In this document: positions 6,693 through 23,733 of the stretch, piece by piece
How the letters are laid out: every line of letters starts with the position of its first letter
Position numbering within the stretch: position 1 is the first letter of the stretch
Assembly (NCBI RefSeq): GCF_000195755.1
Contig: NC_002937.3
Coordinates: forward strand, 150,001 to 182,000
DNA length: 32,000 nucleotides
Reading direction: 5' to 3'
Origin: Nitratidesulfovibrio vulgaris str. Hildenborough
GTDB lineage: Bacteria; Desulfobacterota; Desulfovibrionia; Desulfovibrionales; Desulfovibrionaceae
The notes under the pieces: generated by a model
Database searches by the model: none
What the model saw: the letters and a program-made list of their open reading frames with translations, nothing else
What the model was told of the DNA's origin: nothing
Program-made: the position numbers and the translations under genes

Positions 6693-7775
6693 TTAGCTCA
6701 TGAAGAGGAGGACAGCGGCAAGGGCGAGGGCGGCCTTGAGGCCAGCTACGCCGAAGCCGAACAGGAACCCGTTGAGGCCCGCAGCGCGCAGGTCGGAAAG
6801 ACGGGTGGTGAGACCGATGCTGGCGAAGCCCAGCAGGAAGGCCCATTCCATGAAGTGCTTGGCCATCTTCACTTCGGGCTTGGTGAGAACGCCCGCCGTG
6901 TTGAGGCACACGATGGCGAGGAAGCCCAGGACGAACAGCGGGAACTTGTCGCGGATCATCTGCCACTTGTTGATCTTGGCGACTTCGTTGCCCTGTTCGG
7001 CTTCCTGTGCGGCGGCCATGATGGCGAGCATCAGCACCACGAAGGGCAGGAAGACCACGCGGCCGATGTTGTAGATGCCCGCGACGATGCCCGCTTCCTG
7101 ACTGAAACCGAAGCCCGCGGCCAGCACCTGCGCCGAGTTGACGATGCCGACGCCCGCGAAGGCACCGAACTGCTCGGGGGTGAGGTTGAACACCTTGCCG
7201 ATGAGCGGGAAGGCGATGAGCGCCAGCAGGCCGAACATGAGCACCACGGCGATGGAGTAGGCCATGTCCTCGTTCTTGGCCTTGACCGCGGGGGCGATGG
7301 CGATGGTGGCGGAAACGCCGCACACCGACATGCCCGCCGCGAGACACGCGGCAAGAGGCGTGGACATGCCGACCTTGCGGCACAGCCACATCATGACCAG
7401 CGCCGTTCCGAACAGGAACACGGCGATGAACACCAGCGCCTGTGCACCCACTGAGACAAGGCCAGCCAGCGAATAGCTGGAACCCATGATGACGATGCCC
7501 GTCTTGGTCATGATGGTCGAGTAGCGCAGCCCCGGCTGGAACACGGCGGGAACGCCCACGGTGTTGCGGATGATGATGCCGAAGATGATGGCGAGGATGA
7601 AGTCCTTGAGCGAGAGATAGGTCTTGAACAGCGGATAGGCTTCAAGCTTGGGTGCCACGAAGCTGGCGACGAGGGCCACCGCACAGACCAGCAGCAGGCC
7701 GGGAAGGCTCTCCGTCACGGCCCGTGCGAAACTCTGCTGGGCTTCGACAGGCTGGGAGATGACGTTCTGGGACAT
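6693..7775 (-). CDS. yeiH: YeiH/UPF0324 (putative sulfate exporter, PSE family) membrane protein
   Basis: 360-aa polytopic membrane protein whose length and pattern resemble the YeiH family. AGGAG lies 7 nt upstream of the ATG. Preceded by a sigma-54 promoter. Confidence 0.8.
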   Translation of the reverse strand: MSQNVISQPVEAQQSFARAVTESLPGLLLVCAVALVASFVAPKLEAYPLFKTYLSLKDFILAIIFGIIIRNTVGVPAVFQPGLRYSTIMTKTGIVIMGSSYSLAGLVSVGAQALVFIAVFLFGTALVMMWLCRKVGMSTPLAACLAAGMSVCGVSATIAIAPAVKAKNEDMAYSIAVVLMFGLLALIAFPLIGKVFNLTPEQFGAFAGVGIVNSAQVLAAGFGFSQEAGIVAGIYNIGRVVFLPFVVLMLAIMAAAQEAEQGNEVAKINKWQMIRDKFPLFVLGFLAIVCLNTAGVLTKPEVKMAKHFMEWAFLLGFASIGLTTRLSDLRAAGLNGFLFGFGVAGLKAALALAAVLLFMS

Positions 7776-7811
7776 GGGACACTCCTGAGGGCAAAAGTTT
7801 ACCTTGCCATG

Positions 7812-7827
7812 AGCAAATGGAGTGCCA
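7812..7827 (-). promoter_or_regulatory. sigma-54 -24/-12 promoter (TGGCAC-TCCAT-TTGCT)
   Basis: Complement of 7827..7812 matches TGGCAC-N5-TTGCW at all conserved positions. The GC of the -12 box is 38 nt upstream of the yeiH-type ATG. Confidence 0.8.
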
Positions 7828-7902
7828 TGCCTTTTAGGTGTTCAATCACAGATGGTTACATCTTCGATGTCGTGTTTCTCGTGTGTGTTTGCGGGAAGGG
7901 AA

Positions 7903-7973
7903 TGGAACGGTTCCACCAACGATGTTCCTTTGAGGGAACATGTTCCTGTTCGGGTACGCAGTCTGAAGGAACC
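7903..7973. promoter_or_regulatory. array of GGAAC/GTTCC half-sites; candidate enhancer (UAS) for a sigma-54 activator
   Basis: TGGAAC-G-GTTCCA (7903-7915), TGTTCC-N6-GGAACA (7923-7940), GGAACATGTTCC (7935-7946), degenerate GTTCG (7948-7952), GGAAC (7968-7972). The array lies 76-146 bp upstream of the -24 box. Confidence 0.6.
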
Positions 7974-8212
7974 TGAGCCCATCCTCGCTCCTGCCATGGC
8001 TTTGTGGTAGCGATAGGCCAAGGTGTATGACGGGATGTGAAGGTGGGCCTTCGTACAGCGGCATCCGGTGCAGGGTGTCACGGGACACCGGGCGGTAGAC
8101 CGGGTGCGGAATCTCGCCGGAACACGTTGCAGGCCGCATCACGCCAGCCTTCACGGGCATGACCTGAAGCCCCGCACCGTCCTGTTTCGAAGCCGTCACA
8201 CAGGAGCGTTGC

Positions 8213-9346
8213 ATGAAGAAACGCCTTTTCGTTCTCCTTGTTCTTTTGGGTGTGGCGAGCGCTGCGGGGTGGTACGTGACCCGGCATGCGCCCGGAGATG
8301 GCCCGGAAGTGCTGCATGGGAACATCGACCATCGGCAGGTGGACCTCGCCTTCAAGGATGCAGAACGTGTGTCCACGGTGCAAGTGGACGAGGGTGACGC
8401 CGTTGCCGCCGGGGATGTGGTCGCCACGCTGGAAACGGAGCGCCTCGACCTTGAGATTGCCCGTTCCCGTGCCACGGTGCGGGCACAAGAGGCCGTCCTC
8501 GCCCGTCTTGAAGCCGGGTCCCGCCCGCAGGAGATTCGCCGTGCGGAGGCCGACGTGGCGGCGGCGGCAGCCGATGCGGTCAATGCCCGTGCCGTTCATG
8601 CGCGCATGGCCGCGTTGCTCGCCGTCGGGGGGGTGGCCCCGCAGGATGAGGAGAACGCCCGTGCCGCGCGTGATGTGGCCGAGGGCCGCGCCGCGCAGGC
8701 CAGGGCCCAACTCGCGCTGGTGCGCGAGGGGCCGCGTTCCGAAGACATCGATGAGGCGCGGGCCGCACTGGCGGCGCGCCGTCAGGAACTGGCGGTGCTC
8801 GAGCGGCGGCGTGTGGAGAGCGTGCTCGTCGCCCCCACGGCGGGTGTGGTGCGCAAGCGCCTTCTCGAACCGGGCGATATGGCTGCCCCGTCGCGCCCGG
8901 TGTGCACCATCGACCTCACCGGGGTGAAGTGGGTGCGGGTCTTCGTGCCGGAGTCCATGCTTGCGACCATGGTCCCGGGGCGCGCGGCGGAGGTGTCCGT
9001 CGACGGCGCACCGGGCAAGGTCTTCGCGGGCAGGGTGGCCCATGTGGCCGCGTCTGCCGAATTCACGCCCCGCAATGTGGAGACGCCTGAACTGCGCACA
9101 TCGCTGGTGTACGAGGTGCGGGTGCTCGTGGATGACCCGGGAGGGCTGCTGCGACTCGGCATGCCCGCCACGGTACGGCTGGTGTCCCTCGCTCCTTCTG
9201 CAGCCTCTTCGGGTGGAGACGTGAACGCCTCCGACAGCGGGCCACTTGCGAGCAACAGGTCACGTGCGATGCCGCACAGGGGGGACGCTGGCCAGAGCGC
9301 TGCTGCGGCGAGCGGTGCGGCGCATGGCGGGGGGCACGATTCGTGA
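8213..9346 (+). CDS. HlyD-family membrane fusion/periplasmic adaptor protein (YbhG-like)
   Basis: N-terminal anchor MKKRLFVLLVLLGVASAAGWYV. Coiled-coil Ala/Arg-rich centre and beta-barrel-like C-terminal part, then a low-complexity tail. AGGAG lies 6 nt upstream. The stop overlaps the next start (GTGA). Confidence 0.85.
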   Translation: MKKRLFVLLVLLGVASAAGWYVTRHAPGDGPEVLHGNIDHRQVDLAFKDAERVSTVQVDEGDAVAAGDVVATLETERLDLEIARSRATVRAQEAVLARLEAGSRPQEIRRAEADVAAAAADAVNARAVHARMAALLAVGGVAPQDEENARAARDVAEGRAAQARAQLALVREGPRSEDIDEARAALAARRQELAVLERRRVESVLVAPTAGVVRKRLLEPGDMAAPSRPVCTIDLTGVKWVRVFVPESMLATMVPGRAAEVSVDGAPGKVFAGRVAHVAASAEFTPRNVETPELRTSLVYEVRVLVDDPGGLLRLGMPATVRLVSLAPSAASSGGDVNASDSGPLASNRSRAMPHRGDAGQSAAAASGAAHGGGHDS

Positions 9347-17704: not shown

Positions 17705-18004
17705 ACTGCATGCCGCCCTGCCCTGTACAGATTCAAGGGGCGCGGCAAGGCGCGTCGCAACGTCTCGTCGTGGCGCAGGATATCTTTATAGCTGTAAAAA
17801 AAGCTGACACCGGGTATCGTGGGCGTTGATGGTGTGCTGTGTGTGACTTTATCATTATATTCTGGTGTGTTGCTGTTAAGACGTTAGATTGCGGGCTACA
17901 TCTGGCAAGAATGCTGACGGTGGATGCCCGGAAGGAGGTCGCAGACTTATAAAAATCTTTTACTACAGTTGGTTATGAATAAAACCATGCCTGTGGGTAC
18001 GGTA

Positions 18005-18020
18005 TGGCACACCCGTTGCT
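18005..18020 (+). promoter_or_regulatory. sigma-54 -24/-12 promoter (TGGCAC-ACCCG-TTGCT)
   Basis: Exact match to TGGCAC-N5-TTGCW, about 93 nt upstream of ATG 18112. It is preceded by the most AT-rich stretch of the window (about 17780-17990). Confidence 0.8.
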
Positions 18021-18111
18021 TTTGTGAACGCGTGTCTCCGCCGCAGGGCTGCGGCAGGGGGTGCGACACTAGGTTCCGAAACTGCGTGCAGATTTACGGA
18101 GGAGTCACGTA

Positions 18112-19359
18112 ATGGGTTTCGCAAGAGACGTATATGAATTCATGAAGGCAGGAGCCGTGGCCCACGCCAAGTGGGATATCGAGGTCTCCACGTCCATCAT
18201 CCGCAACCGCAAGAAGATGCTCATCCTGCTTGCGATGCTGGTGCCCGTGTTCCTGTTCAACTTCGCCGAAGCGGGTGCGGTGCTTGGCAGCAAGACCGCC
18301 TACGCCCCGGCCTTCTACACGACGAAGATCTTCTTCGTCTCCATCGCAGTGGGTCTTGCGGCGGGCCTCATCACCGGCTGTATCGGTGCGGGGGGTGGCT
18401 TCATCATCACCCCGGCACTCATGGCCGCGGGGGTCAAGGGCATTCTCGCCGTCGGTACCGACCTCTTCCACATCTTCGCCAAGGCCATCATGGGCACCAC
18501 GGTGCACAAGAAGCTGGGTAACGTGTCGGTGAAGCTGGCGGTGTTCTTCCTCATCGGTTCCGGTGGCGGTACGTTCATAGGCGGCGCCATCAACAAGGGC
18601 CTGTACAACAAGGACCCGCTGCTCTCCGAACTGTTCATCAGCACCATCTACGCGGTGCTTCTGGGCTTCCTCGGCTTCTACGCGCTGTATGACTTCATCA
18701 AGGCCAGCCGTGCAGGCGGCGGCGGTGACGCCCACGGCGGCGGTTCCGGCACCACGGCCATCTCCGTGAAGCTGCAGGGCATGAACGTGCCCCCCATGAT
18801 CACCTTCGACGAAGACCTCGTGCCCGGCGGCCGTCGCATCTCCGGCTGGATCGTTGCCGCAGGCGGCGTCGTGGTGGGTATCCTCGCGGCCATCATGGGC
18901 GTCGGCGGCGGCTTCGTCACCTTCCCCATGTTCGTGTACATCTTCGGCGTGTCCTCCATGACCACCGTGGGTACCGACATCCTTCAGATCATCTTCACCG
19001 CCGGTCTCGGCGCCATCGCCCAGTACGCCATCTACGGCTTCGTGTTCTACACGCTGGCCATGGGCATGCTGCTCGGTTCGCTGCTCGGCATCCAGATCGG
19101 TGCGCTGACCACCAAGGTGGTCAAGGGCATCCATATCCGCGGCTTCTACGCCGTCTCCATCATCGCGGGCTTCATCAACCGTGCCGCCACGCTGCCCAAG
19201 AAGCTGGTGGAACTGGAGATGGTGTCGCTGCCCAAGGCGTTCGTCACCAACGTCGAGTTCTTCGGCAACATCATCTTCTGGGTGGTGGTCGCCGTGTTCG
19301 GCGTGTGGGTCTTCGGTAAGTTCTTCGCCAACATAGGCAAGCTGAGAGCGGAGGCGTAA
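18112..19359 (+). CDS. TauE/SafE (DUF81) family anion exporter-like membrane protein
   Basis: Two internal repeats carry the family pattern (GCIGAGGGFIITPALMAAGV...AVGTDL and IMGVGGGFVTFPMFVYIFGV...TVGTDI). GGAGGAG lies 7 nt upstream of the ATG. Confidence 0.75.
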   Translation: MGFARDVYEFMKAGAVAHAKWDIEVSTSIIRNRKKMLILLAMLVPVFLFNFAEAGAVLGSKTAYAPAFYTTKIFFVSIAVGLAAGLITGCIGAGGGFIITPALMAAGVKGILAVGTDLFHIFAKAIMGTTVHKKLGNVSVKLAVFFLIGSGGGTFIGGAINKGLYNKDPLLSELFISTIYAVLLGFLGFYALYDFIKASRAGGGGDAHGGGSGTTAISVKLQGMNVPPMITFDEDLVPGGRRISGWIVAAGGVVVGILAAIMGVGGGFVTFPMFVYIFGVSSMTTVGTDILQIIFTAGLGAIAQYAIYGFVFYTLAMGMLLGSLLGIQIGALTTKVVKGIHIRGFYAVSIIAGFINRAATLPKKLVELEMVSLPKAFVTNVEFFGNIIFWVVVAVFGVWVFGKFFANIGKLRAEA

Positions 19360-19360
19360 G

Positions 19361-20083
19361 ATGATCAACAACAAGTCGAGCTTCATGAAGGGATTGCTGC
19401 TTCTGGTCTCCTTCGCCGCAGTCTTCGTAGTCATCATGACGCCGGTCTTCCCGACCGACTCGGGCAAGAAGGAAAACGGTCTGCACTATGCGGACGACCT
19501 GTTCAACAAGCTGTCGAAGGGTTCCTCGTACTTCATCCCCGAAGTGCAGAAGAAGGTCGACGGTCTCGCTGGCAAGCAGATTGACCTTGCTGTGACGGTG
19601 AAGAAGGCCGACAAGGCCGCCGATGCCGCGAAGGTGTTCACCGCCGCTGGCATGACGGCCACGGCTGAAGGTGAAATCCTGAAGGTGAAGGGCGACCTCG
19701 GTGCGCTGCTGAGCGCCACCGTGAAGGACGCCGACTCCATGTACCATAACGATGCGGCTGCTGTTTCCGCCCGTTACGGCATGGAAGCCGCCGATGCCAT
19801 GGAAGCCTCGTGGGAAGCCTACGCCGGCATGATCAAGGCCCTGCAGAAGGCCAAGCTCATCCCCGAATCGCAGGCTGTGGACATGGTGATGAAGAAGGCC
19901 ATCGAACCCGGTTACAACTTCTACGGCATCAATGCCGCGAAGGTGACCGACAAGATGGGCATCATGACCGGTCTGCTCGTCTTCTACGTCATCTACACCA
20001 TGTGGTACGGCTTCGCCATCTTCGAACTGTTCGAGGGCATCGGCCTGACCATGAAGAAGTCCAAGGTGAAGCAGGAAGCCTAG
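19361..20083 (+). CDS. uncharacterised membrane protein (N-terminal TM, Ala/Lys-rich helical domain, C-terminal hydrophobic segment)
   Basis: The ATG lies 1 nt after the upstream TAA, with GGAGG 8 nt upstream. Codon bias matches the genome. I recognise no family. Confidence 0.7.
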   Translation: MINNKSSFMKGLLLLVSFAAVFVVIMTPVFPTDSGKKENGLHYADDLFNKLSKGSSYFIPEVQKKVDGLAGKQIDLAVTVKKADKAADAAKVFTAAGMTATAEGEILKVKGDLGALLSATVKDADSMYHNDAAAVSARYGMEAADAMEASWEAYAGMIKALQKAKLIPESQAVDMVMKKAIEPGYNFYGINAAKVTDKMGIMTGLLVFYVIYTMWYGFAIFELFEGIGLTMKKSKVKQEA

Positions 20084-20108
20084 CCCCCTGCGGACGAAGG
20101 ATTCTCTG

Positions 20109-20141
20109 GGCCCCCCGGTACGCCGGGGGGCCTTTTCGTTT
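20109..20141 (+). terminator. rho-independent terminator
   Basis: GGCCCCCCGG (20109-20118), loop TACG, CCGGGGGGCC (20123-20132), then TTTTCGTTT. It begins 26 nt after the stop of the 19361..20083 gene. Confidence 0.85.
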
Positions 20142-20443
20142 GTGCTGTGCGGCATGGGGCGAAGCCGCCGTGGCTTGAGCGCGGGTTGTGGCGCGTATGA
20201 ATGCCAACGTGCTCATGGCTGGTTCAGCCGGGGCAGTCCTTCCGAGGGCACTGCGGGCGCAAGCTGGCGTGGACCATCAGGGCTGGTCACGTCTACGCCG
20301 GTTGCCGGGTGAGGAAGGGAGACTGGAGGCCATGCGCGGACGGGCGTCACCGGGGTCTGCCCCTGTCGTGGCGGCCCCACTGGATGAGCGCGGTCGCGCT
20401 GGCTGTGCCGGGTACGCCGTCATGAGACGCACGGCTACGGGTG

Positions 20444-23574: not shown

Positions 23575-23733
23575 TCGTTGCTGGCGTGGTACAGGCACGG
23601 TCCTGCCGCCCTTCGGGTGGCGCATAGCTGTCCCGGTGGGAAAGCGGCGCCGGGGGGTGGCGACATCCGAAAGCCTTTGTCGTTGCGCGTTCAATGGTAC
23701 GCTGTTTGCTCTCTCTTGTGCGGAGCATCATGT

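Follow-up and report, generated by a model that had tools for sequence, protein, structure and literature searches.

Members of the TSUP or TauE/SafE family of transporters (PF01925, TC 2.A.102; TauE, SafE, TsaS) are ordinarily single-subunit proteins of about 240-270 amino acids (aa), built of two halves that carry GxGGG and VGTD motifs. For the entry of sulfate into sulfate-reducing bacteria, TSUP proteins have been named only as possible candidates. Here, we describe the operon DVU0132-DVU0133 of Nitratidesulfovibrio vulgaris str. Hildenborough (D. vulgaris), which lies in a stretch of 32,000 nucleotides of contig NC_002937.3 (assembly GCF_000195755.1, positions 150,001 to 182,000 of the forward strand), hereafter the window, to whose numbering coordinates refer unless a genome or another locus is named. 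The operon encodes a TSUP protein, g1 (DVU0132), and a partner with two transmembrane (TM) helices, g2 (DVU0133); the same labels are used for their homologues. Like ordinary TSUP proteins, g1 consists of two halves with the family motifs. It differs from them in its length of 415 aa, in additional elements (one N-terminal helix, two TM helices and a cytoplasmic loop of ~50 aa) and in being constantly paired with, or fused to, a second subunit that ordinary members do not have.

Several described systems resemble this operon in part. Sulfate uptake by the TauE family is established, since TK06_RS10770 of Pseudomonas fluorescens restores growth of Escherichia coli cysA; its Acidovorax homologue, Ac3H11_578, is cofit with sulfate adenylyltransferase (PMC11535334). 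Both proteins belong to the same Pfam family as g1, and distant relatives of the g1-g2 pair are likewise linked to sat, but no partner subunit is mentioned for the two proteins (PMC11535334). The 'nitrate cluster' DVU0251-DVU0245, known from D. vulgaris and D. alaskensis (G20) (Korte 2014, PMC4001038), combines a TauE gene, directly succeeded by a gene for a small conserved hypothetical protein, with genes for a histidine kinase, a receiver and a PPDK-like protein, and the same companions occur with g1-g2 in Syntrophobacteraceae and Nitrospirota. Its two proteins measure 321 and 196 aa against 415 and 240 aa for g1 and g2, the partners having been compared by size, and nitrate resistance is known for that cluster alone; an identification of the present pair with DVU0251/DVU0250 was ruled out by gene sizes and then by coordinates. 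Nine sigma-54-dependent TSUP or PSE transporter operons have been reported in D. vulgaris, for which substrate specificity data are absent (Kazakov 2015, PMC4641369). Of these, DVU0123-0121, DVU0150-0146 and the DVU2957 region are, like DVU0132-DVU0133, enhancer-controlled putative sulfur-anion carriers, and DVU0150-0149 is likewise a gene pair for a hypothetical membrane protein and a TSUP protein. Their activators and binding motifs differ from those of DVU0132, and UPF0324/YeiH is an unrelated fold family. The concept of a large permease with a small, sometimes fused, membrane partner is shared with secondary transporters whose small subunit is obligatory, namely TRAP DctQM, TTT TctAB and SSS with DUF4212, to which g1-g2 bears no sequence or fold relation, and from which g2 is set apart by its large predicted periplasmic domain.

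A preliminary description of this stretch had presented the locus as an undescribed functional unit. The operon is in fact listed as sigma-54-dependent and as encoding a 'predicted TSUP family transporter' and a 'hypothetical membrane protein' (Kazakov 2015, PMC4641369), and two NtrC-type regulators, DVU0110 and DVUA0057, bind at it in DNA affinity purification-chip (DAP-chip) experiments (Rajeev 2011, PMC3333781; Kazakov 2015, PMC4641369). With its promoter, activator site and two activators published in 2011 and 2015, the operon is therefore not undescribed, although its function still is. By name, DVU0132 and DVU0133 were found in one main text only, that of Kazakov 2015, and TauE or TSUP is not mentioned in the main texts of Price 2014 and Trotter 2023. 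What is new here is the recognition of g2 as a probable integral, often fused, periplasm-facing subunit of a distinct and highly conserved TSUP subfamily, together with a regulatory cassette shared across orders and a testable hypothesis of sulfate uptake.

g1 and g2 occur as a pair and are repeatedly fused

Homologues of g2 are encoded in at least 589 genomes in a scan of one genome per species, and neighbourhoods were counted in the 80 best-matching of these, which belong to Desulfovibrionaceae, Thermodesulfovibrionales and other Nitrospirota (including magnetotactic ones), Syntrophobacteraceae, and a few Acidobacteriota and archaeal metagenome-assembled genomes (MAGs). A g1 homologue lies directly 5' of g2 on the same strand in 79 of the 80 loci; in the exception, g2 starts 118 nt from the end of its contig. 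Joint conservation of the two genes, on which the preliminary description had staked its proposal in advance, is hence what was found. In the window, the TAA of g1 (19357-19359) and the ATG of g2 (19361) are separated by a single nucleotide.

Natural g1+g2 fusions make up about 70 clusters. Library matches of 600-670 aa carry the TauE domain N-terminally and g2 C-terminally, and a search with one of these, P0246, returned a family of fused proteins of 650-700 aa. Fusions were found in Kiritimatiellales, Victivallales, Phycisphaerae, Planctomycetes, Sumerlaeota, Armatimonadota, Sulfotelmatobacter and Firmicutes. A special tie to sulfate or sulfite reducers is not supported, since fusions are common in the first six of these groups; the host itself is a sulfate reducer, a case that the preliminary description had considered. 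Firmicutes also hold split pairs, and the g2 of Desulfofundulus is 43% identical. The two parts of the fused proteins are connected by a positively charged linker of ~25 aa, which runs from the last TM helix of g1 to TM1 of g2. A structural model of a fusion reached a pLDDT of 81.4 and a pTM of 0.74, and a Foldseek search with it against the PDB returned no meaningful match (best E 0.03, TM-score <=0.2).

The charge distribution of both proteins bears on their orientation. Averaged over the alignments, net charge is +2.6 in the N-terminal tail of g2, +2.9 in its C-terminal tail and +3.7 in the fusion linker, while the flanks on the side of the g2 domain are negative; in g1, positive charge is found in the N-terminal helix, in the central loop and in the loop behind the third core helix. 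Because of the positive-inside rule, these statistics place both ends of g1 and of g2 probably in the cytoplasm, and the ~165-residue domain of g2 would then lie in the periplasm. Strict synteny, translational coupling and repeated fusion leave a two-subunit complex as the sole reasonable reading, and we infer that DVU0132 and DVU0133 form one heteromeric secondary transporter, of which g2 would be the obligate second subunit. Thermodesulfovibrionales MAGs carry two tandem g1 copies that are about 74-76% identical to the g1 of the window and are followed by universal stress protein (USP) genes (L046, 1674-2930 and 4710-5966; L073, 1786-3072 and 4710-5966).

g1 is an enlarged TSUP permease

The assignment of the first gene to the TauE/TSUP family, as originally made, is borne out by Pfam TauE (PF01925), which matches g1 over residues 78-353 with an E-value of 1.3e-35 and 123.7 bits (cut-off 32.6); no NCBIfam model matches it, and the PDB, searched by sequence and by profile, yielded no match to it. 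Its two homologous halves are marked by the motifs IGAGGGF...AVGTDLFH and MGVGGGF...TVGTDILQ, both near-invariant in 76 genomes, over which the TSUP core has a mean column conservation of 0.92. Across phyla, g1 proteins are 65-86% identical and can be aligned from residue 1.

The segment preceding the TauE domain, thought at first to span ~50 aa, measures about 75 aa and consists of an amphipathic helix and an extra TM helix, both conserved across phyla; a further TM helix is added at the C-terminus. The Gly-rich central loop described earlier (residues 197-216) is the least conserved part of g1 (column conservation 0.60 vs 0.92 in the core) and is disordered in the model. The hairpin that follows this loop (FD..VPGGR) is conserved.

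g2 represents a large unannotated family

As had been noted from the start, the second gene falls outside any curated family. Pfam yielded no match to g2 and NCBIfam noise only, including a hint of hemolysin HlyE that was rejected at 15 bits against a cut-off of 590. A collection of proteins clustered at 90% nonetheless holds 2345 homologues at E <= 1e-3, all called 'hypothetical', and a library of protein representatives holds 343 clusters at 50% identity. The protein thus defines a family of thousands of sequences with neither a Pfam or NCBIfam model nor a PDB analogue; solved structures of relatives are not known for this family or for any TSUP protein. It is less conserved than its partner, sequences being about 50% identical over the genomes in which g1 is 65-86% identical.

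An AlphaFold2 model of g2 built on an alignment of 30 sequences (pLDDT 90.4, pTM 0.77) shows TM1 at residues 5-26, a helical bundle with a beta-alpha-beta-beta insert at 73-112, which is the most variable stretch of the sequence, and a long TM2 at 195-227. The hydrophobic segments proposed earlier for the two ends of the protein accordingly stand as TM helices, whereas the domain between them is not purely helical. Neither Foldseek with this model against the PDB (best E 0.65, TM-score <=0.2) nor a profile search of PDB sequences gave a meaningful match. Twelve residues are conserved to at least 97% in 99 sequences from all sub-clades (G11, D45, F48, N49, K53, S55, E182, N186, L206, Y209, G217 and G226). 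They make up two polar motifs by the predicted periplasmic ends of the two TM helices, D45-x2-F48-N49-x3-K53-x-S55 and E182-P-x-Y-N186-F, and one face of TM2.

Genomic contexts point towards sulfate

As to substrate and direction, we favor inducible uptake over export, with sulfate or a similar inorganic oxyanion of sulfur (for example, thiosulfate) as the substrate, a reading to which we would give about an even chance of being correct. It is ranked first because of the company that relatives of the pair keep with sat, cysH, DASS, SulP and sulfatase genes, because a member of the TauE family imports sulfate, and because no SulP gene of D. vulgaris is essential for this transport.

Informative contexts come from more distant relatives. 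In at least 13 metagenome loci, a cysH-like gene (PAPS_reduct), g1, g2 and the ATP sulfurylase gene sat follow one another on the same strand with tight spacing. The relatives concerned are full-length, with g1 52% and g2 33% identical (E 5e-49). A Thermodesulfobacteriota MAG has the order g1, g2, sat (L174, 1992-6349). In this MAG and in the cysH-like-g1-g2-sat operons (L144, 4952-10096; similarly L126-L152 and L158), an ordinary TauE gene of 252 aa comes after sat, which places sat between two very different TSUP transporters within a single operon for sulfate activation.

Carriers of other families adjoin the pair as well. A gene of the DASS (Na/sulfate symporter) family does so in 11 loci from at least three lineages: in magnetotactic Nitrospirae it is convergent and stands right after g2 (L020, L024, L025, L026, L031 and L032, about 6775-8314, minus strand), and Desulfofundulus and two metagenome loci have it ahead of a gene of no assigned kind, a CBS gene, g1 and g2, in this order. 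SulP genes adjoin the pair in three loci, in one of them, a Kiritimatiellales MAG, directly after the fused gene. At locus L088 (2565-7983), genes for a sulfatase, an anaerobic sulfatase-maturating radical-SAM/SPASM enzyme and, as the last gene, fused g1+g2 lie on one strand with short gaps; the context of fused genes is otherwise mostly uninformative. D. vulgaris has three SulP genes, not one of which it needs for sulfate transport (PMC5840216), so that other importers must exist in this organism.

Several observations weigh against sulfate uptake. Around the pair, neither the window nor any of the 80 closest genome loci has sat, cysH or another sulfur gene, and the sat-linked pairs are distant relatives that stem largely from one lineage. 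Because a second TauE gene follows sat, context cannot tell which of the two transporters imports sulfate. The DASS and SulP families also carry non-sulfur anions, and genomes of the Planctomycetes-Verrucomicrobia-Chlamydiae (PVC) group are so rich in sulfatases that a single sulfatase adjacency is weak. The operon shares its activators, DVU0110 and DVUA0057, with genes for exopolysaccharide and biofilm, not with sulfur genes (PMC3333781, PMC4641369). In rich lactate-sulfate medium, DVU0133 is non-essential and tolerates many transposon insertions (Trotter 2023, supplement), and the main text of that large fitness study reports no phenotype for it.

For the pair as one transporter, the following picture is proposed. 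A two-component system of a CHASE3/4HB-type sensor kinase and the NtrC-type regulator DVU0110, with DVUA0057 binding too, would switch on an otherwise silent operon, the regulator binding TGTAAAAAAAGCTGACA about 210 bp upstream and thereby rendering the sigma-54 promoter active. DVU0132 would contribute the TSUP core of two halves, supplemented by a cytoplasmic helix at the N-terminus, by one additional TM helix at either end and by a hairpin loop in the cytoplasm. DVU0133 would insert beside it by means of its two TM helices and present its ~165-residue helical/beta domain on the periplasmic face, with the conserved motifs (D45..S55 and E182..F) at the boundary between membrane and periplasm. 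A bolder version of this proposal, which we judge improbable as it stands, is that DVU0132-DVU0133 and relatives constitute the inducible system, long sought, by which sulfate reducers take up sulfate. Its architecture, not recognized before among transporters, would be a 12-TM TSUP core capped by a two-TM subunit; the periplasmic domain of that subunit, for whose fold the PDB has no counterpart, would capture the anion or act as its gate. Were it true, it would account for the sulfate uptake left unexplained by SulP, DASS and CysP genes. In any event, a g1 conserved at 65-86% identity, a constant second subunit and relatives beside sat, cysH, DASS and SulP genes make the pair a concrete candidate that can be tested genetically.

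Alternative substrates and roles

Of the alternatives, the one that survives best, though we consider it doubtful, is that the pair imports some other solute, be it thiosulfate in particular, a sulfonate, a sulfate ester or a sulfur-free anion tied to the exopolysaccharide/biofilm regulon. TSUP substrates are diverse, and DVUA0057 and DVU0110 also act on exopolysaccharide and PEP-CTERM genes. Elsewhere, moreover, the pair travels with the gene set of the 'nitrate cluster' (TauE, small hypothetical, receiver, PPDK-like and USP or phosphatase genes), the loss of which confers nitrate resistance; a leaky transporter of thiosulfate was suggested by those who described it (PMC4001038). Against this, sulfate is the best fit to the sat and cysH operons.

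Export of sulfite or an organosulfonate, by which toxic sulfite from sulfate or sulfonate respiration would be cleared, is still less likely. Pfam names the family after the exporters TauE and SafE, and the authors of PMC13490349 suggested export for a Dissulfuribacter pair, a candidate member of the g1-g2 family. Set against this, in the informative contexts the pair is flanked by cysH and sat or adjoins sulfate carriers of the uptake type, and the family is common among organisms that are not known to use sulfur compounds for respiration. The preliminary description had taken the pair for a putative exporter, a claim for which we found no support: the sat, cysH, DASS and SulP contexts point to sulfate activation and uptake, and the one sulfate-related TauE protein that has been tested directly is an importer (PMC11535334).

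That the pair is a sensor, a 'transceptor' or a regulatory membrane module signalling through USP, receiver and PPDK-like proteins strikes us as very improbable. A USP gene stands directly 3' of g2 in 29 loci, a gene for a PPDK_N and PEP-utilizers protein occurs in 25 and single receivers occur in 52; yet the g1 core keeps all TSUP transporter motifs in an extreme state of conservation, and the pair is unaccompanied by such signalling genes in D. vulgaris and numerous other genomes. The notion that g1 and g2 are mere neighbours, with DVU0133 an unrelated membrane protein, is effectively refuted by the repeated natural fusions and by synteny that holds in 79 of 80 loci across phyla, with a spacing of 1 nt in D. 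vulgaris.

A regulatory cassette shared between bacterial orders

All open reading frames (ORFs) of the 80 loci were clustered for neighbour counts. A sensor histidine kinase whose periplasmic domain is of the CHASE3/4HB type is encoded upstream of g1 in 38 loci and an NtrC-type sigma-54 activator in 35, and the single-domain receiver mentioned above is often encoded immediately 5' of g1. Sigma-54 sites were sought by a scored search against background, most having been missed by a strict regular expression. An element with at least 10 of 11 positions was found within 1 kb upstream in 24 of 68 related loci, compared to 3.2% of random windows.

The activator site is shared in the same way. In about 25 loci, frequently next to the gene of the activator, TGTAAA-N5-CTGACA stands 5' of g1 or of a receiver gene that itself precedes g1; any TGT-N11-ACA was found in 31 of 69 loci, where 0.14 would be expected per 900 nt. 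Since the loci with TGTAAA-N5-CTGACA include those of Solidesulfovibrio, D. piger and Syntrophobacteraceae, this putative regulatory site is common to several bacterial orders. In D. vulgaris, the kinase-activator pair lies outside the window, and the site and promoter are kept at DVU0132. No strong sigma-54 site was found in Nitrospirota and several gut Desulfovibrio, so that enhancer-dependent control is common but not universal.

In Syntrophobacteraceae and Nitrospirota (L019, L039, L045, L058, L062, L072, L075, L077 and others), g2 precedes a USP gene, one or two genes for receivers and a gene for a protein of ~900 aa with PPDK_N and PEP-utilizers domains and an unassigned C-terminal third, an arrangement that mirrors the gene content of DVU0251-0245. 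In Nitratidesulfovibrio sp. HK-II (L002), an ORF at 6913-7821 (+), which by eye reads as an Fe/Mn superoxide dismutase with a Tat-like leader, separates g2 from a convergent cluster of genes for a histidine kinase, a receiver and a PPDK-like protein.

Organization of the DVU0132-DVU0133 operon

The features of the operon and the other sigma-54 promoters of the window are collected in Table 1. The preliminary description had recognized a compact, sigma-54-controlled two-gene membrane operon with one such promoter and a strong terminator, and the ORFs, their 1-nt spacing, the promoter and the terminator all agree with it.

Table 1. Positions of the operon's genes and control elements, and of the remaining sigma-54 promoters, within the window
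Feature	Position	Strand	Basis
DVU0132 (g1), enlarged TSUP/TauE permease, 415 aa	18112..19359	+	ORF list, Pfam TauE
DVU0133 (g2), two-TM partner, 240 aa, predicted periplasmic domain	19361..20083	+	ORF list, pairing, AlphaFold
Activator site TGTAAAAAAAGCTGACA for NtrC-type DVU0110 and DVUA0057	17793..17809	+	Matches published site; binding from DAP-chip literature
AT-rich spacer, activator site to promoter	17810..18002	+	GC 0.455 at 17800-17999 vs about 0.65-0.70 in flanking genes
Sigma-54 -24/-12 promoter TATGGCACACCCGTTGCTT	18003..18021	+	Same as DVU0132 promoter, Kazakov 2015 Additional file 6
Intrinsic terminator	20108..20143	+	Stem 20108-20133, 11 pairs (10 G-C), then T run
DVU0123 promoter CATGGCACTCCATTTGCTC	7812-7827	-	Base-identical to published
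DVU0139 promoter AATGGTACGCTGTTTGCTC	23695-23710	+	Base-identical to published

Locus identity is confirmed by the essentiality table of Trotter 2023, where DVU0133 occupies genome positions 169361-170083 on the plus strand (723 bp), that is, its window coordinates plus 150000. The older gene call for DVU0132 comprises 374 aa (P0412) and starts at the ATG at 18235, a start that is also implied by the published positions of the promoter and the activator site (-232 and -442). On sequence grounds, the supported start is the ATG at 18112, and the 374-aa call is 41 codons short: homologues from distant phyla align from residue 1, a ribosome-binding site precedes this ATG at 18098-18104, and current gene callers use 415 aa. 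Ribosome-binding sites of both genes are of the GGAGG type, with GGAGGAG 7 nt 5' of the g1 ATG and GGAGG for g2 within the 3' end of g1.

Upstream of g1, the sigma-54 element TGGCACacccgTTGCT at 18005-18020 (+) reads TGGCAC-N5-TTGCT, with the correct spacing of the -24 GG and -12 GC, and lies 92 nt 5' of the g1 ATG. By itself, the number of such patterns in the window is weak evidence, with three matches at one mismatch or fewer against 1.19 expected, and three or more in 9 of 100 shuffles. All three, however, are base-identical to the published promoters of DVU0123, DVU0132 and DVU0139 (Kazakov 2015, PMC4641369, Additional file 6). The promoter at 7812-7827 drives DVU0123-0121, which includes a UPF0324/YeiH-type carrier and has DVU0118 as its activator, and that at 23695-23710 drives DVU0139-0140, a histidine kinase and a response regulator. 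The activator site occurs once in the window against 0 expected by chance, and is the same as the DVU0132 site of Kazakov 2015, Additional file 4. The AT-rich spacer between this site and the promoter is presumably the region of DNA looping; no match to the integration host factor (IHF) consensus was found within it, and an Rfam scan of the leader and operon returned no family above threshold. Downstream of g2, the terminator folds with -36.1 kcal/mol (z -3.3), and none of 200 shuffled sequences folds as well.

The GC content of 17800-20083 is about 0.55-0.64, compared to 0.65-0.70 in the neighbours. As the operon is low in GC and g1 is 65-86% identical across phyla, the cassette could have spread horizontally.

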